From the IMG/VR virus record IMGVR_UViG_3300027702_000001: a stretch of DNA of 64,000 nucleotides. One strand, 5' to 3'. Of the stretch, positions 895 to 61,288 are shown one piece after another; the stretch's first letter is position 1; every line of letters starts with the position of its first letter. This DNA is from a virus. The notes under the pieces were generated by a model. The model did not search any database. It saw only the letters and a program-made list of their open reading frames with translations, and had not been told where the DNA came from. Made by a program: the position numbers and the translations under genes.

Positions 895-1209
895 CTAGAA
901 TGCGAGTTCCATACCATTAGCGAACGATTCTGTCAAGTGCTTATAACCTACGAACCAAGTCCAGTTTTTTTGAAATACGCGAGTGCCATAAGAGAATTCA
1001 TCAAGAATAGCGTTTAGACGTGATTTAGTTGTATTTGACTGCCAACCGCCATCGAACAATAAAACAGAATTATTTGTAACTGTCGCGATGTGATTGCCGT
1101 GAAGATAAACGTTTGCTTCGCCGTTAGCGTGTGAAACTGAAGTGTTAGCACTTGAGAAGTTTCTGCCGCTTCTGATTGCTGAGTTCATTTGAGTTTCGAT
1201 CTTTCTCAT
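895..1209 (-). CDS. Conserved cyanophage early hypothetical protein
   Basis: ORF behind early promoter with GGAG RBS; MRKIETQMNSAI N-terminus typical of cyanomyovirus early ORFs. Confidence 0.75.
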   Translation of the reverse strand: MRKIETQMNSAIRSGRNFSSANTSVSHANGEANVYLHGNHIATVTNNSVLLFDGGWQSNTTKSRLNAILDEFSYGTRVFQKNWTWFVGYKHLTESFANGMELAF

Positions 1210-1241
1210 TTGGTGTGGTCTCCTGTGTTGCTTATACTAAT

Positions 1242-1299
1242 ATTATAGGGGATAGGGACGCGATTGCTCGTGGTGATGTGCCACTAATCGAACTGTCCA
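1242..1299 (-). promoter_or_regulatory. Early promoter: palindrome plus -10
   Basis: GTGCCACT-N6-ACTGTCCA at 1278-1299, 30 bp from TATAAT at 1247-1242. Confidence 0.8.
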
Positions 1300-1334
1300 C
1301 TATCGATTGAAATTGGTCGCTTGACGTGATACGG

Positions 1335-1658
1335 TTATTTACCTACACCATAGTCGGATGCACTTCTCTCAAGTTGGTATAAACTTCCGTCTCTATATCC
1401 ATCCTTATATGATTGTTCGATCTTTTCATCGATCTTTTCAAAGTCATCTTCTGAGAGACCACTCTCTTCAAATATGAGAGCATTATCTGAAAACTTTTTC
1501 AACTCTTCGAGAACCTCGTCATATGAAAATTGGCGGTTTATGGCATTATCTCCGAATGCTAGTTCATAGACCTCTTCAATAAATTCGTTTTTTGTCATTT
1601 GCTTTTGTACTGTGAGATTGTTCAATGTGAGATTAAGATCGGTAAAAATATCGTGCAT
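1335..1658 (-). CDS. Hypothetical acidic protein
   Basis: ORF track; true start may be internal (MTKNEF). Confidence 0.65.
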   Translation of the reverse strand: MHDIFTDLNLTLNNLTVQKQMTKNEFIEEVYELAFGDNAINRQFSYDEVLEELKKFSDNALIFEESGLSEDDFEKIDEKIEQSYKDGYRDGSLYQLERSASDYGVGK

Positions 1659-1663
1659 AGTGC

Positions 1664-1858
1664 TTAGAATGGGTTTGTCCAGTTGTATGCTTGCCAGTCG
1701 GTAACCATCCCATCCTGATTGAGACAGTCAACAAAATTGTTCCAACTCTCACGTTTTGCGATTGTGTCACCTCTGAGAGACCTATCCTGAGCAACTGCCA
1801 CTTTCCAGTTGTAACGAAATTGCTCTAGAACCTGTGCTTTAGTTGCTCTCCAAGTCAT
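1664..1858 (-). CDS. Conserved cyanophage early hypothetical protein
   Basis: GGAG RBS downstream of early promoter; ends WTNPF. Confidence 0.75.
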   Translation of the reverse strand: MTWRATKAQVLEQFRYNWKVAVAQDRSLRGDTIAKRESWNNFVDCLNQDGMVTDWQAYNWTNPF

Positions 1859-1890
1859 TTGTGAAATTCTCCTTTGTTTGCTATGTACTT

Positions 1891-1948
1891 ATTATAACGG
1901 ATCAGATCCGCCTGTGTAGGGTAGGTGTGCCAGTTCGTGAACTGTCCT
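1891..1948 (-). promoter_or_regulatory. Early promoter: palindrome plus -10
   Basis: GTGCCAGT-N6-ACTGTCCT at 1927-1948, 30 bp from TATAAT. Confidence 0.8.
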
Positions 1949-1979
1949 AGAAAGTGGTCAGTCTTAACTGTCTCACCTA

Positions 1980-2129
1980 TCATTTATTAAGAGGACTATT
2001 AAAATATGCTTTATTTACTGTGTAGATGGTAAAAATAGCGACGATGATCCCTAAAAACCCTAACCACAAAATTGGGGAATGGGGGAAATCATAAAATGGG
2101 ACTTCTGTGGGAACTGTTGAAAATTGCAT
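1980..2129 (-). CDS. 49-aa single-pass membrane protein (below track cutoff)
   Basis: Manual translation MQFSTVPTEVPFYDFPHSPILWLGFLGIIVAIFTIYTVNKAYFNSPLNK. Confidence 0.65.
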   Translation of the reverse strand: MQFSTVPTEVPFYDFPHSPILWLGFLGIIVAIFTIYTVNKAYFNSPLNK

Positions 2130-2201
2130 CTTAGTTAGGATTGTAGTAATTGAGAAATAGCACTAATATAAGTGCGATGAGTAAAATTGAAATTAATGTG
2201 A

Positions 2202-2354
2202 TCATTCTGTGTAAATGTATGAGTTACCAGTATCATATACATCCGAGAAGAGTTGATAATATAGGTCATTCATTAAACCAAATTCAAAACTAGTGCTCGC
2301 GTGCTCTTCAGTCACTCCCTCGTAGCATTTGAGAATTTCATCGTATTGAGTCAT
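2202..2354 (-). CDS. 50-aa hypothetical protein (start revised)
   Basis: MTQYDEILK start follows GAGG RBS and early promoter at 2379-2437. Confidence 0.6.
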   Translation of the reverse strand: MTQYDEILKCYEGVTEEHASTSFEFGLMNDLYYQLFSDVYDTGNSYIYTE

Positions 2355-2378
2355 CTTTTCCTCTGTGTGTATGTCCTT

Positions 2379-2437
2379 ATTATAAGGGATGGGATTCTGA
2401 TCTGTGTGTGGTGTTGTGACAGTAGTTAAACTGTCAC
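2379..2437 (-). promoter_or_regulatory. Early promoter with perfect palindrome
   Basis: GTGACAGT-agttaa-ACTGTCAC at 2416-2437, 31 bp from TATAAT. Confidence 0.85.
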
Positions 2438-2451
2438 ACAACCGCTTGACT

Positions 2452-2877
2452 TTAGTAAACAATGCACTTATTAGATACATTGATGATTGTGAAACCGAGT
2501 TTTTTCAAAATGTTTCTGTATCTTGCGATCTGAGTATTCTTGCGATATTCCCAAAGATCATCGCCAAATGCGATATAAGAAACTTTTGCTACTTTAGTTT
2601 TATCAATGTGGATTGCTCTGTAATCATCCTGACTAATGTCATCGTGGGCAACTTCGTAAACGATCTTAGCAACTACCTCGCCGCCGATGATTAGATTTGA
2701 AAATTGTGAACTCTCGTGCTTATGGTGAACTGAAACACCATTTTTCCAGTCTCCAGATCCATATGTGTTGATGCGATCTAAAACTAGTGATTGATATACA
2801 TCGAGTTTAACCTCTGGATCAAGACCAATTCTAAGTGTGTCTTTTTTGATCAATTCTTTGTATTCTGTAGGTGTCAT
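2452..2877 (-). CDS. Hypothetical early protein
   Basis: 141-aa ORF directly downstream of early promoter. Confidence 0.7.
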   Translation of the reverse strand: MTPTEYKELIKKDTLRIGLDPEVKLDVYQSLVLDRINTYGSGDWKNGVSVHHKHESSQFSNLIIGGEVVAKIVYEVAHDDISQDDYRAIHIDKTKVAKVSYIAFGDDLWEYRKNTQIARYRNILKKLGFTIINVSNKCIVY

Positions 2878-2900
2878 AGTTGTTTGTTGCTTATACTAAT

Positions 2901-2959
2901 ATTATAGAGGATGATGCCCCAATAATAAACAACGTATGTGCCACTAATACAACTGGCAC
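2901..2959 (-). promoter_or_regulatory. Early promoter: palindrome plus -10
   Basis: GTGCCACT-N6-ACTGGCAC at 2938-2959, 31 bp from TATAAT. Confidence 0.8.
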
Positions 2960-3177
2960 TAGAATCTTTCTAAAACTTTGCATTTTGTGTAATCGTAAAC
3001 AGGATGGAATAATGTTTCATCGTTACAGATCTCCATTTGTGGTCTACAATAGCGTCCCCATCTTCGGATAACTGTTCCAATAATCCGCTGACCTATTGGA
3101 TCAGTATATGCAACGATGTCACCTATACTAATCTCAGCGAATGACTCATAAGTGTTGTATTCTTTAATTTCGCTCAT
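2959..3177 (-). CDS. Hypothetical protein
   Basis: ORF track; ATGA overlap with the upstream gene. Confidence 0.65.
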   Translation of the reverse strand: MSEIKEYNTYESFAEISIGDIVAYTDPIGQRIIGTVIRRWGRYCRPQMEICNDETLFHPVYDYTKCKVLERF

Positions 3178-3467
3178 TGTGCAACCGCTCTTGTTTCAAT
3201 GATTATATCTCTAACTCTCTCGCGATCGAGTGAGTCACCATCACCGAACTCAATATTAGTGTTTGATGCACATAGATCGAGGTATCTGAGTATCGCGATT
3301 GCGATCTCTCCAGTTGTTAATCCATCGATAGGATATAATACATCGGGATGATATGGTGCATAAAACATTTCGATGTAGTCTAGAAATTCTTGAAAATTGC
3401 TCATTAGTTTAAACTCCTTTAACTCTTGATTGTAGGTAAGTTGATTGTGCTTGACATACATTGTCAA
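3174..3467 (-). CDS. Conserved cyanophage hypothetical protein
   Basis: ORF track; FGDGDSLDRERVRD C-terminal motif; start may be internal (MSNFQEF). Confidence 0.65.
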   Translation of the reverse strand: MTMYVKHNQLTYNQELKEFKLMSNFQEFLDYIEMFYAPYHPDVLYPIDGLTTGEIAIAILRYLDLCASNTNIEFGDGDSLDRERVRDIIIETRAVAQ

Positions 3468-3603
3468 CTAGGTTATCGAATGTTTGAACATCCCAACCTT
3501 TTTGCTCTGCAATGTCTAACTCATATGCTGTCATTACGAGGTCATAGAGTAACTCATATTGACCGTTTGAGACTTCGATGTTCATTCCTTTGATTGATTT
3601 CAT
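3409..3603 (-). CDS. Hypothetical protein
   Basis: First ORF after early promoter at 3631-3688. Confidence 0.65.
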   Translation of the reverse strand: MKSIKGMNIEVSNGQYELLYDLVMTAYELDIAEQKGWDVQTFDNLVDNVCQAQSTYLQSRVKGV

Positions 3604-3630
3604 TTAGTTTCCTTTGTTGCTTATGTCCTT

Positions 3631-3688
3631 ATTATAGAGGATCAATACCGCTCTGGGATGCTTTTGTAGTCACTTTGTGAACTGTCAC
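3631..3688 (-). promoter_or_regulatory. Early promoter embedded in upstream CDS end
   Basis: TAGTCACT-N6-ACTGTCAC at 3667-3688, 30 bp from TATAAT. Confidence 0.75.
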
Positions 3689-3836
3689 AATGCTCCTTGA
3701 CAAGATACTCGCCTGTCATTATTCTTTCAAATACTGCGGTCTGTTCATCATTTAGATCAAAATCCATATCTCTGAGAACATCCCACAATTTCGTCATTTG
3801 ATATGACTCGTCGAATGACATAGGTATATTAAGCAT
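3642..3836 (-). CDS. Hypothetical protein
   Basis: ORF track; overlaps neighbour by 8 nt. Confidence 0.6.
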   Translation of the reverse strand: MLNIPMSFDESYQMTKLWDVLRDMDFDLNDEQTAVFERIMTGEYLVKEHCDSSQSDYKSIPERY

Positions 3837-4050
3837 CGTAGTTAACTCCGCTGAATACTCTTAACTGAGTTGCATAGTTAACAAGTTGATTGAATCCATC
3901 TTCATTAACCTTAATCTGATCCAATAGTTTTGAGTCTGCTTCCTCATCTAGAAACCTCATAATGGTCTCAAATTGCTCTAACGCTTCAAAACTAAATCCA
4001 GTCTCTGCTTCAACTTCTGTGCGATCTGGGAATGTTGAGTTTTCAATCAT
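3829..4050 (-). CDS. Hypothetical protein
   Basis: First ORF after early promoter at 4076-4133. Confidence 0.65.
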   Translation of the reverse strand: MIENSTFPDRTEVEAETGFSFEALEQFETIMRFLDEEADSKLLDQIKVNEDGFNQLVNYATQLRVFSGVNYDA

Positions 4051-4075
4051 TTGTTTTTGTGTTGCTTATGTTCTT

Positions 4076-4133
4076 ATTATAGTCAATGTATGTGAACTAT
4101 GGTGTTACTGTGTGCCAGTAATATAACTGTCAC
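4076..4133 (-). promoter_or_regulatory. Early promoter: palindrome plus -10
   Basis: GTGCCAGT-N6-ACTGTCAC at 4112-4133, 30 bp from TATAAT. Confidence 0.85.
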
Positions 4134-4145
4134 ATAAACACTTGA

Positions 4146-4319
4146 CTATGCACTTTGTAGTTCTTCTAATAGAGAGTCAAGTTCTTCAGCACAATGACCA
4201 CATCGCCATCCCTCTATCTCATCACCATAATATGCATATCTGTTGACGAATCTGCCTGATCCTGCTTTACAAGACTGACCACAGTCAACACAAATTTCTG
4301 AATCAAATGTATTTTTCAT
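4146..4319 (-). CDS. Small putative zinc-finger protein (57 aa)
   Basis: Manual translation MKNTFDSEICVDCGQSC...GWRCGHCAEELD; two CxxC pairs; ATGA coupling. Confidence 0.65.
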   Translation of the reverse strand: MKNTFDSEICVDCGQSCKAGSGRFVNRYAYYGDEIEGWRCGHCAEELDSLLEELQSA

Positions 4320-4474
4320 TGACATTCATCCTCGAATCTCTCGCGAGCAATATATTCACAATGCTCAACAAGTGCTTCCTCACTCATCATTTTATCGAGA
4401 CCTGTGGATCTCATTAGTTCTAACTCATCTTCATAGAATCCGATAAGCATATCTTCGTGATGTGAAACTGACAT
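4316..4474 (-). CDS. 52-aa acidic hypothetical protein
   Basis: Manual translation MSVSHHEDMLIGFYEDELE...; abuts both neighbours. Confidence 0.6.
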   Translation of the reverse strand: MSVSHHEDMLIGFYEDELELMRSTGLDKMMSEEALVEHCEYIARERFEDECQ

Positions 4475-4612
4475 TTAAACTTCCTCCCAGTAAACTGTAT
4501 CAACTTTTTTGTATAGGTCTGCAACTTTGCATCCCTTACGTCTAGCAACTTGTCTTGCTATCATCGCTTCCCATCTTAGGAATGACTCATAGTTTCTGTT
4601 TCTACTGCACAT
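4475..4612 (-). CDS. 45-aa basic hypothetical protein
   Basis: Manual translation MCSRNRNYESFLRWEAMIARQVARRKG...; first ORF after early promoter. Confidence 0.55.
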   Translation of the reverse strand: MCSRNRNYESFLRWEAMIARQVARRKGCKVADLYKKVDTVYWEEV

Positions 4613-4635
4613 AATGTTTGTTTGTTTATACTATT

Positions 4636-4693
4636 ATTATAGTAAATGTGTGGTGCATATGGTAACATTATGTGCCACTAGTTGAACTGTCAC
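4636..4693 (-). promoter_or_regulatory. Early promoter: palindrome plus -10
   Basis: GTGCCACT-N6-ACTGTCAC at 4672-4693, 30 bp from TATAAT. Confidence 0.85.
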
Positions 4694-4923
4694 ACTATAC
4701 GATCCATAAAGATCCATTCATATGTACCATCCTCAGGGTCGCGTCCATTAACAACGAACTCCTCATAAATGGCATCAGCATCTTCAAAACGGTTGGCATC
4801 AATGTGCTTTGTGATCACGTTCATATAGTGCTCACCCATCAGATCGATTGATGTTTGCATTTGTTCGTTAAATTCCTGATTGTGGTCGTACTCGTGGATC
4901 TCGTTATTTAATTCGTGTTCCAT
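4690..4923 (-). CDS. Hypothetical acidic protein
   Basis: ORF track; overlaps the end of the nuclease gene. Confidence 0.6.
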   Translation of the reverse strand: MEHELNNEIHEYDHNQEFNEQMQTSIDLMGEHYMNVITKHIDANRFEDADAIYEEFVVNGRDPEDGTYEWIFMDRIV

Positions 4924-5407
4924 AGGTTTGGATTGCTTTGTTGGGGATAGTGTAACCTAGTCGTGGGTCTTTTCTGATCTTATCAGAATGAAATTGCTTT
5001 TTAAGACTAGGTAGTAGCAAGTTCAGTACGTCATCGCCTGACATTTGCCAGACTTCAACAACTTGACCATTTTGGTAGCGTGCAAAGAAGTGATCTTTGT
5101 ACTTGCCAATTTTCTCTTCTTTGAGATACTTGACTTGATCTTCCCAAGTATCTTGAACTGAAATACCATTGTAGGTGGCGGTCAGTTTCTTACCTATAGT
5201 AGATTTATACTCAACAGGATTCCCATCCTGATCAAATGCATCAGCACCCGAGTAATCATCAGCAACATTATGCCCAAGGATACCCGCTAAGTGAATTTCA
5301 CGTGAGCGTGCATAACTGAATGGATCTCCCCATCCGTGTTGGTCGCAAAGAGCATACATTTGCTCAAAAAGTTGCTGATATTGTTGTTCGGGTGTTGTCA
5401 CTTGCAT
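4904..5407 (-). CDS. PvuII-like PD-(D/E)xK restriction-type endonuclease (167 aa, start revised)
   Basis: GADAFDQDGNPVEYKS parallels PvuII GNDAVDNAGQEYELKS with the same D-x9-E-x-K spacing; HGWGDPF, FFARY and IPNKAIQTYGTRIK parallel PvuII HGINDIF, IFAIY and IPVKYVMEHGTKIY (PvuII recalled from memory). Confidence 0.7.
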   Translation of the reverse strand: MQVTTPEQQYQQLFEQMYALCDQHGWGDPFSYARSREIHLAGILGHNVADDYSGADAFDQDGNPVEYKSTIGKKLTATYNGISVQDTWEDQVKYLKEEKIGKYKDHFFARYQNGQVVEVWQMSGDDVLNLLLPSLKKQFHSDKIRKDPRLGYTIPNKAIQTYGTRIK

Positions 5408-5429
5408 AGTTTTTTGATTCGATACCTCT

Positions 5430-5487
5430 ATTATAAGGGTTAAACCCATCCGTGTGTGGATGGGTGTGCCACTAGTCAAACTGTCAC
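5430..5487 (-). promoter_or_regulatory. Early promoter of the nuclease gene
   Basis: GTGCCACT-N6-ACTGTCAC at 5466-5487, 30 bp from TATAAT; 8-bp inverted repeat ACCCATCC/GGATGGGT in the spacer. Confidence 0.85.
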
Positions 5488-5488
5488 A

Positions 5489-5722
5489 CTAGCAGGATGC
5501 AGGTGAGTAGTTTTGTGGTTCAGTTAAGAAGTCAGTCACCTGATAATGAAGATCGAGACGTGAATTGATTGTTTCAATCATTTCTCGCTTACTCATCAAT
5601 CGCATTGACATAGCATTAACCTCACCCCACTTATTTTTCAAACTGAGAGTATAAACAAATTTCTCACTCAAAATCGCGTGTGGACGAAATTCGACTGTCA
5701 TCGATCCTGCTGTGAGTTGCAT
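5489..5722 (-). CDS. Conserved cyanophage early hypothetical protein
   Basis: GGAG RBS, first ORF after promoter at 5750-5807. Confidence 0.7.
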   Translation of the reverse strand: MQLTAGSMTVEFRPHAILSEKFVYTLSLKNKWGEVNAMSMRLMSKREMIETINSRLDLHYQVTDFLTEPQNYSPASC

Positions 5723-5745
5723 TTGGTCTCTCCTGTGCTTTACCT

Positions 5746-6069
5746 CTATATTATAGAGGATGGGGCAAGGTCTAGTGGTTCGGGTGTGACAGTTTGTGGT
5801 TTGGCACGAAGTGTCATCTGTTGCCAGTCATCCCACTCTGTTCCATAGTTGGATTCCACTAGTGGTTTAATCTGTTGCATCAATCCGATTATCGCATCCT
5901 TACCATAATAATCGTGTTCGATAGTATCGTGACCAGTACAACTTGATCCCCACTCTGTTACGTCGCTGTCAATTCTTGCAACTAAACCGCGTGCATAATA
6001 GTGAAGCATACCTAGTTCTCTTCTTGATAATGCTATTGTGAACTCTTTTTTGTTGTTAGTTGGATTCAT
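5746..6069 (-). CDS. Hypothetical protein
   Basis: ORF track. Confidence 0.65.
   Translation of the reverse strand: MNPTNNKKEFTIALSRRELGMLHYYARGLVARIDSDVTEWGSSCTGHDTIEHDYYGKDAIIGLMQQIKPLVESNYGTEWDDWQQMTLRAKPQTVTPEPLDLAPSSII
5750..5807 (-). promoter_or_regulatory. Early promoter embedded in upstream CDS end
   Basis: GTGACAGT-N6-TTTGGCAC at 5786-5807, 30 bp from TATAAT. Confidence 0.75.
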
Positions 6070-60193: not shown

Positions 60194-61288
60194 TCAACCA
60201 ATAGAAGGTGCAATCAAAGCAACAGGAGTTGTCTCTGCAGCAGCAAGATCTAGTGGGAAGTTGTGAGCGTTACGCTCGTGCATAACTTCCATACCAAGAC
60301 CTGCTCTGTTAAGAACATCTGCCCAAGTTGGAATCACTTTACCAGATGCATCAACAACCGACTGGTTGAAGTTGAATCCGTTCAAGTTGAATGCCATTGT
60401 GCTCACACCCATTGCAGTGAACCAGATGCAAACCACAGGGAATGCAGCAAGGAAGAAGTGAAGTGAACGTGAGTTGTTGAATGAAGCATATTGGAAGATC
60501 AAACGACCAAAGTAACCGTGAGCGGCAACGATGTTGTAAGTCTCTTCTTCTTGACCGAACTTGTAACCGTAGTTCTGAGATTCAGATTCTGTAGTCTCTC
60601 TGATTAGAGAAGATGTAACTAGAGAACCGTGCATTGCACTGAATAGAGAACCACCAAACACACCTGCAACTCCGAGCATATGGAATGGGTGCATTAGAAT
60701 GTTGTGCTCTGCTTGGAACACGAACATATAGTTAAAAGTACCTGAGATACCAAGAGGCATCGCATCTGAGAAAGAACCTTGTCCGAAAGGATACACCAAG
60801 AACACAGCGAATGCTGCAGATACTGGTGCTGAATAAGCAACACAGATCCAAGGACGCATACCTAGACGGTATGAAAGTTCCCACTGACGACCACAGTATG
60901 CTGTGATTCCGATAAGGAAGTGGAATACAACGAGTTGGAAAGGACCACCGTTATACAACCACTCATCTAGAGTTGCTGCTTCCCAGATTGGGTAGAAGTG
61001 TAGACCGATAGCGTTTGAAGAAGGGACAACAGCACCAGAAATGATGTTGTTACCATACAAAAGAGATCCTGCAACAGGTTCTCTGATGCCATCGATGTCC
61101 ACAGGTGGAGCAGCGATGAACGCGATAATAAAACAAGTAGCAGCGGCAAGCAAGCAAGGAATCATCAAGACACCGAACCAACCGACATAGATGCGGTTGT
61201 CAACGCTTGTGACCCAGTTGCATAGTTCGTCCCATCCTGAGAGGAGACCACCACGCTGGCGAGTAATAGTTGGACTTGAAATAGACAT
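60194..61288 (-). CDS. psbA: Photosystem II D1 protein
   Basis: [39 protein letters not shown]; uninterrupted. Confidence 0.99.

Follow-up and report, generated by a model that had tools for sequence, protein, structure and literature searches.

The 64,000-nucleotide IMG/VR virus record IMGVR_UViG_3300027702_000001 (the window), from a marine cyanophage, carries on its minus strand, at positions 4904–5407 with the stop codon at 4904–4906, a 167-amino-acid (aa) open reading frame (ORF) encoding a PvuII-fold PD-(D/E)xK nuclease. The translation contains the motif GADAFDQDGNPVEYKS, a D56-x9-E66-x-K68 arrangement of the catalytic residues that had been correctly read in the original prediction for this locus. 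The prediction further held that the nuclease is solitary and expressed early, and that it could cut RGCY in host DNA with relaxed PvuII specificity while the phage escapes because RGCY has been purged from its genome. We found that the nuclease is indeed related to PvuII and lacks a partner methyltransferase. The word whose loss follows it is CATG, which is absent over the entire window (positions 1–64000; 0 observed, 233 expected) and may be the footprint of self-protection.

Kinship of the nuclease with PvuII

Single-sequence searches gave faint signals. The nuclease returned a weak PvuII match by phmmer that aligned its catalytic segment, NCBIfam held no family for it, and its PHROG, 35715, has no assigned function. 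More than 1300 relatives were present in marine metagenomes, few of them with a precomputed match to the Pfam family PF09225 (Endonuc-PvuII). When 45 nuclease homologues were searched, PF09225 was detected at E ≤ 0.01 in five, with a best value of 2.8e-6.

A profile of the same 45 homologues matched PvuII chains by hmmsearch over essentially the whole protein, with E values of 3.3e-7 to 5.3e-7, and matched tandem single-chain PvuII with an E value of 1.3e-14. Positions 11–165 of the nuclease family aligned to PvuII 15–157, and the predicted N- and C-terminal parallels to R.PvuII were thus confirmed by a full-length match. The residues D56, E66, and K68 aligned with PvuII D58, E68, and K70, and each was at least 90% conserved across the homologues. 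An AlphaFold2 model of the nuclease (predicted local distance difference test 96.8, predicted template modelling score 0.89) was compared with the PDB by Foldseek, a check that the original prediction had proposed. The top 11 matches were all PvuII, with template modelling (TM) scores of 0.59–0.74 and a probability of 1.00. They were followed by the methyl-directed enzymes Eco15I and NhoI and by DpnI, and then by the much weaker resolvases RecU and Hjc (E > 0.05, TM about 0.4 or lower). A fold search of BFVD gave weak, uncharacterised viral matches. The window nuclease is a true PvuII homologue with a PvuII-type PD-(D/E)xK fold.

The segments with which PvuII reads its bases, STHHH (81–85) and DINNPK (138–143), are replaced in the nuclease family by YNGIS..TWE and KDPRLG, and these two segments are themselves conserved within the family. 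As the fold and chemistry are PvuII-like but the base-reading segments are different, the specificity should differ from that of PvuII. Within the lineage that lacks the methyltransferase, the pairwise ratio of nonsynonymous to synonymous substitution (dN/dS) of the nuclease was 0.02–0.09 at dS of 0.26–1.1, with the catalytic residues intact. As judged from these ratios, the orphan gene is maintained under strong purifying selection. Megablast of the window against phage isolates produced short matches only and no close isolate.

Complete loss of CATG in carriers without the methyltransferase

Expected word counts were calculated from base composition, which is 41% G+C in the window. A complete IMG/VR relative with terminal repeats (G002, 181,945 bp) stood proxy for the whole genome of the window; 98.5% of the window aligns with it collinearly, with a nucleotide identity of 94%, and the two nucleases are 99% identical. 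CATG was absent from this genome as well (0 of 662 expected). In five carrier genomes without the methyltransferase (about 500 kb), the only missing 4-mers were CATG (0 of 1823 expected) and CCGG (0 of 918). Every flanking context of CATG was missing from the five genomes, indicating that the 4-mer itself is avoided rather than a 6-mer.

We then compared three groups of loci. The first comprised 23 unique methylase-less carrier loci, in which the nuclease is present, 2 kb or more can be seen to either side of it, and the small methyltransferase described below is missing. All 23 were free of CATG (0 against 1396 expected). In the second group, 25 carriers with the small methyltransferase, the median observed/expected ratio (o/e) was 0.43 and no locus reached zero (0/25). 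The third group was drawn from 80 control loci anchored on the neighbouring helicase, 63 of which have no nuclease; here the median was 0.93, again with no locus at zero (0/63). CATG in the methylase-bearing carriers was lower than in the nuclease-less controls (Mann–Whitney p of about 8e-6, not phylogenetically corrected). In potential hosts the CATG o/e was 0.86 for Prochlorococcus and 1.16 for marine Synechococcus, or about one CATG per 260–370 bp of host chromosome. The general idea that the phage protects itself by sequence avoidance instead of methylation therefore fits the data well, with CATG as the word avoided. In the contig G003 (IMGVR_UViG_3300020442_000006, 187 kb), all 12 CATG and 5 of 13 AGCT fall in the last 2.4 kb (185,000–187,493), and this end is probably a chimeric assembly.

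A small methyltransferase adjoins the nuclease gene in relatives

The absence of a methyltransferase from the window, as originally stated, was borne out by tblastn with five cyanophage DNA methyltransferases (two from P-SSM2, two from P-TIM68, and one of the Dam family), none of which matched. A cognate enzyme elsewhere in the genome had also to be considered. In G002 and two further near-complete relatives, there was no match to PF01555, PF00145, PF05869, or PF02384 and no small methyltransferase; the sole DNA methyltransferase in these genomes, a D12 enzyme of the Dam family, lies at a distance of about 89 kb. The Dam-family enzyme was rejected as the cognate because it also occurs in the nuclease-less complete genomes G007 and G008.

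The situation is different in most related cyanomyoviruses that carry the nuclease. In P-TIM68, gp050, annotated as hypothetical, is a homologue of the nuclease and is flanked on one side by a PF01555 "putative methylase" and on the other by a 176-aa "DNA methyltransferase". P-SSM2 has the small methyltransferase 7.6 kb upstream of the nuclease. In IMG/VR loci, with few exceptions, the small methyltransferase begins within −22 to +40 bp of the stop of the nuclease gene, and 52 of 73 loci with the small methyltransferase have a PvuII-like gene directly upstream. Among cyanophage isolates, both genes were found in the identical three phages only, namely P-SSM2, P-SSM5, and P-TIM68. Because relatives carry the small methyltransferase adjoining the nuclease, the two genes are taken as an ancestral pair. 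Genome comparison thus indicates that the nuclease is solitary in the lineage of the window and that this solitariness is a derived state.

The small methyltransferase has 176–197 aa, is 75–93% identical across phages, and contains an invariant SNPPFTNK motif. Pfam gave weak EcoRI_methylase and Eco57I similarity without a curated family, NCBIfam likewise had no family for it, and a PDB sequence search found nothing meaningful. Motifs of the NPPF/NPPY type mark N6-adenine amino-methyltransferases, such as M.EcoRI and M.TaqI, and the NPPF motif suggests that the small methyltransferase is of this type. The PF01555 enzyme (P-TIM68 gp049 type) was rejected as the cognate, since it is common in nuclease-less loci and is thus an orphan. 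Such N6/N4 methylases, 61–81% identical to gp049, are widespread near the helicase in nuclease-less cyanomyoviruses (L074, L075, L085, L094, L101, L103, L105, L128, and others).

In the window, a very acidic 77-aa ORF (20 D+E, 4 K+R; 4690–4923, minus strand) overlaps the 3′ end of the nuclease gene by 20 nt and fills the slot where relatives have the methyltransferase. It was rejected as an immunity protein, as phages without the nuclease have homologues of it, and homologues are also found at other positions. In four contigs, an ORF of 300–310 aa without a Pfam family replaces the PvuII-like gene beside the small methyltransferase (L357:1009–1920, L371:826–1728, L400:3067–3987, and L413:3003–3935). 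An ORF of the NlaIII/IceA family (PF05315) was present in one of five contigs (L413, 1841–2437), about 1.5 kb ahead of the small methyltransferase and 0.6 kb upstream of the 310-aa ORF, which sets the two apart. Further NlaIII/IceA-family copies paired with the small methyltransferase were looked for and none was found. The 300–310-aa ORFs and the PF05315 ORF may be alternative nuclease partners of the small methyltransferase.

RGCY and CCGG depletion is general to marine cyanomyoviruses

RGCY is nearly absent from the window, as the original prediction had observed. There are 14 sites against about 673 expected, an approximately 50-fold depletion (observed/expected: AGCT 1/233, AGCC 2/162, GGCT 2/164, and GGCC 9/114). 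It is neither the sole nor the most purged word, however, since CATG (0/233) and CCGG (0/114) are missing altogether. By comparison, loci of Prochlorococcus (505 kb) and of marine Synechococcus/Cyanobium (181 kb) had an o/e of 1.6 for AGCT and 1.3–1.6 for RGCY.

The expected correlation between RGCY depletion and presence of the gene was found only in part. The 63 nuclease-less loci were about as depleted as the carriers (median o/e of AGCT 0.14, AGCC+GGCT 0.08, and CCGG 0.00), and 7–11 of them were at zero for RGCY words. Four complete genomes among the controls have no PvuII-like gene anywhere. For two of these, the observed/expected counts were 688/693 for CATG, 234/693 for AGCT, and 0/381 for CCGG (G007), and 511/611, 128/611, and 0/210 (G008), respectively. 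With genome-wide AGCT o/e of 0.34 and 0.21, these complete controls were less depleted than G002, at 0.02. From these counts, RGCY and CCGG depletion is general to marine cyanomyoviruses and stronger in the lineage of the window, and it is not tied to the nuclease. In most of the loci examined, including the controls L057–L143, CCGG was missing or almost so and RGCY was reduced 5- to 10-fold, with or without the nuclease. Along G007 and G008 (L156–L165 and L176–L185), AGCT density was highly uneven (0–45 sites per 10 kb), and the helicase/small-gene region was nearly AGCT-free.

RGCY sites also remain in the carriers themselves. There are 52 in G002 and 1–30 in each of the 23 methylase-less carrier loci, and AGCT occurs 119 times in the 406 kb of these loci. 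CAGCTG is absent from the window and G002 and is present in nine methylase-less carrier loci and in the methylase-less carriers G005 (three copies) and G013 (two copies). Together with the replaced base-reading segments, this speaks indirectly against a CAGCTG specificity. Because RGCY sites persist in every methylase-less carrier and nuclease-less loci are similarly depleted, RGCY is not the target of the nuclease, and this part of the original prediction was not supported. CCGG would not be the target of the small methyltransferase either, if that is an adenine methyltransferase, and it is also absent from nuclease-less phages. The selecting agent behind the loss of CCGG and RGCY may be a host restriction–modification (R-M) system or another phage nuclease.

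Coincident changes of nuclease and CATG on the helicase tree

The nuclease is patchily distributed among cyanomyoviruses, requiring 11 changes on a tree of the helicase, which was used as the backbone. This tree contained a supported clade of 30 rows in which 20 carriers free of CATG intermingle with 10 phages without the nuclease, the latter with CATG at or above expectation. Within the clade, nuclease presence and CATG loss each need four changes, which coincide, and two of them are forced by well-supported branches.

A repeated promoter-like element upstream of the nuclease gene

A −10-like hexamer, TATAAT, was read from the sequence 22 nt upstream of the nuclease ATG (5430–5435, minus strand). 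About 30 nt upstream of the hexamer lies a 24-nt dyad, TGTGACAGTTTGACTAGTGGCACA (5465–5488, minus strand), one copy of a repeated promoter-associated element. The unit of dyad and TATAAT recurs in the window from 1200 to 5800 ahead of at least eight further small genes of the minus strand and keeps the same architecture there (TATAAT at 4641, 4081, 3636, 2906, 2384, 1896, and 1247; partial copy at 5755). By its sequence, the nuclease gene has its own copy of the promoter-like element of this region. A generic sigma-70 consensus scan did not list the site upstream of the nuclease, and its counts equalled those of shuffles. Of the early promoter originally claimed, the promoter-like element thus stands, and the early timing is presumed.

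The dyad consensus is about TGTGACAGTT-N4-6-ACTGGCACA, with at least nine copies on the minus strand between 1200 and 5800, about 30 nt upstream of TATAAT and without a −35 box. Each copy precedes a small gene, and many are then followed by a ATAAGCAAC-like leader. Between the dyad and the hexamer of the nuclease gene, a pattern search found a perfect hairpin with a 7-bp stem (CCCATCC-GTGTGT-GGATGGG, 5445–5464), the single match in the window; an attenuator and a terminator of the upstream gene are candidate roles. At the other end of the window, psbA (60194–61288, minus strand) encodes a protein 89%–90% identical to Prochlorococcus copies and 87% identical to that of marine Synechococcus, which is a weak hint at the host.

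Discussion

We consider it probable, though well short of settled, that the window nuclease is an active type IIP-like restriction enzyme of the PvuII family that has been orphaned of its methyltransferase, cuts CATG, and spares its own genome because the sites have been purged. The ancestor would have been a phage-borne type II R-M cassette of CATG specificity, composed of the PvuII-fold nuclease and, directly downstream, a very small NPPF-motif methyltransferase whose product would be N6-methyladenine at CATG. Methylase-bearing carriers are already partly depleted of CATG; in one clade the purge would have been completed and the methyltransferase lost, with the nuclease kept. The nuclease would be expressed from its own promoter-like element in a small-gene and presumably early region, and would cut any unmethylated DNA bearing CATG in the infected cell, both the host chromosome and the genomes of co-infecting phages. 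The phage genome itself would be spared, since the target, which is most likely the palindromic 4-mer CATG, does not occur in it. The nuclease may serve to break down host DNA, for shut-off and as a source of nucleotides, or to exclude rival phages, or it may do both. CATG can be written as the PvuII site CAG|CTG minus its central GC, and the nuclease family is without the PvuII histidines that read those bases; any connection between the two is conjectural.

Several points weigh against this reading. Against the window nuclease alone, PF09225 scored 14.2 bits (E = 0.045), under the 25-bit Pfam gathering threshold. The specificity of the nuclease is drawn entirely from comparative genomics, and the chemistry of the small methyltransferase from its motif. 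The nuclease tree groups all genes without a methylase into a single, well-supported clade, inside which a methylase-bearing, CATG-containing subgroup is nested, giving about two transitions. Independent contrasts number 2–4 on either tree, all of them agreeing but too few for a significant sign test. In addition, five apparent exceptions have the nuclease and CATG sites without a visible small methyltransferase. Four are P-SSM2-like contigs that end 0.3–1.5 kb upstream of the nuclease, and the methyltransferase of P-SSM2 itself lies 7.6 kb upstream; the fifth, only 52% identical, is a remote family member that adjoins a PF01555 methyltransferase. Finally, a subgroup of nuclease-less cyanophages (L115, L116, L121, L122, L126, L131, L138, and L141) is about 4- to 18-fold depleted of CATG, never to zero, and other CATG-directed pressures therefore exist. 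This partial depletion may reflect CATG cutters of hosts or of rival phages.

The most serious alternative, which we judge unlikely yet worth keeping in view, is that CATG was removed by CATG cutters from outside. The nuclease would then have another specificity or be restrained by an unrecognised inhibitor, Dam-family methylation, or tight regulation, and the small methylase would be an anti-restriction orphan, dispensable once CATG had gone. The CATG-depleted nuclease-less cyanophages and the small number of independent contrasts are compatible with this, as is the NlaIII/IceA-family gene in one contig, which implies that CATG cutters of another family circulate in cyanophages. The Dam-family methyltransferase of the complete relatives would provide one form of restraint, but it is also found in nuclease-less phages; the acidic 77-aa ORF has homologues in nuclease-less phages too, with no positional linkage to the nuclease. 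Strictly zero CATG was confined to loci with the nuclease and without the methyltransferase (23/23, against 0/25 and 0/63), and on the backbone tree the sister phages that have no nuclease show normal CATG. The tight and often overlapping gene pair in relatives further implies a shared specificity of nuclease and methyltransferase.

It is much less probable that the protein is a PD-(D/E)xK nuclease of recombination, repair, homing, or packaging and that its adjacency to a methylase in relatives is incidental. The PD-(D/E)xK fold is common to resolvases, RecU and Hjc appear among the weak matches, and PHROG 35715 is without a function; nevertheless, the similarity is specifically to PvuII, over the full length and in all top 11 structures, the patchy distribution is unlike that of a core replication or repair gene, and the nuclease is strictly linked either to the methyltransferase or to zero CATG. 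Least credible, to the point of being nearly dismissed, is the original proposal of a relaxed PvuII/CviJI-like enzyme that cuts RGCY (or AGCT/CAGCTG) in host DNA, for which the strong depletion in the window relative to hosts and the lack of CAGCTG in the window and G002 can be cited, but against which stand the residual sites in every methylase-less locus, the RGCY depletion of nuclease-less loci and complete nuclease-less genomes, the loss of the PvuII base contacts HHH 83–85 and N140/N141, and the absence from G002 of any C5 or N4 methyltransferase to protect the remaining RGCY.

As an orphaned CATG cutter, the nuclease can be compared with several known systems. R.PvuII of Proteus vulgaris (type IIP, CAG^CTG; PF09225; PDB 1pvi, 1f0o, and 3ksk) has the same fold, the same D-x9-E-x-K arrangement, and N-to-C collinearity, and is in the same length class (157 aa against 167 aa). 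The two are, however, only about 20% identical, and the probable site of the window nuclease is CATG, not CAGCTG. M.PvuII is a PF01555 N4-cytosine enzyme, whereas the partner in relatives of the nuclease is the 176–197-aa NPPF methyltransferase, and no controller protein was seen. The enzyme could be a new PvuII-fold CATG cutter. A search of the full-text literature found no paper describing an orphan PvuII-fold nuclease in a CATG-free cyanophage.

Phage genomes classically counter-select short palindromes that are host R-M sites. The purging of short palindromes from a virulent phage is the same here, and the CCGG and RGCY depletion is probably of that class. With CATG, in contrast, selection seems to have come from a nuclease that the phage itself encodes and not from a defence of the host.

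Chlorovirus R-M enzymes have been proposed to break down the DNA of the host within minutes after infection (PMC7019647, Van Etten et al. 2019). CviAII (CATG) and CviJI (RGCY) are likewise virus-encoded short-site enzymes whose genes adjoin methylases (PMC7019647). Chloroviruses differ in that methylation shields their own DNA and the nucleases are carried in the virions, whereas in the lineage of the window the methylase is gone, the probable sites are purged, and the host is bacterial. PacI is a solitary restriction enzyme whose bacterial host genome is without its site (PMC3488263, Ershova et al. 2012), and it would resemble the window nuclease, if the latter cuts CATG, as a methylase-free enzyme tolerated through absence of the site from its own genome. 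The PacI site is an 8-bp AT-only word that is rare by host composition, whereas the lytic phage studied here has lost every copy of a 4-bp word for which about 660 occurrences per genome would be expected. Compared with R.PvuII, the chloroviruses, and PacI together, only the present case combines a probable 4-bp site, a lytic-phage carrier, and a methylase loss traceable among relatives. If true, it would be an extreme form of restriction without modification, for which PacI, an 8-bp cutter in a bacterium, is the known precedent (PMC3488263).

T4-like cyanophages, which kill a large part of the picocyanobacteria in the ocean, are without the T4 host-DNA breakdown genes denA, denB, and ndd, and according to a review must either be less efficient at this task or use an undescribed method (PMC2984593). 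The role suggested here for the nuclease follows from this absence and from the parallel with the R-M enzymes of chloroviruses. If true, a 4-bp cutter that has no methylase, in a genome purged of its site, would be a testable candidate for both host-DNA breakdown and inter-phage warfare, and would mean that a phage's own nuclease, besides host R-M systems, can shape oligonucleotide avoidance. In its fullest form, which we offer tentatively and as nearly an even matter, the picture is that a widespread clade of lytic cyanomyoviruses tells self from nonself purely by sequence. These phages would have erased CATG from genomes of about 180 kb, discarded the methylase, and kept a 4-bp cutter that shreds host DNA in place of denA, denB, and ndd and destroys rival phages, and such nucleases may drive the partial CATG depletion of other cyanophages.

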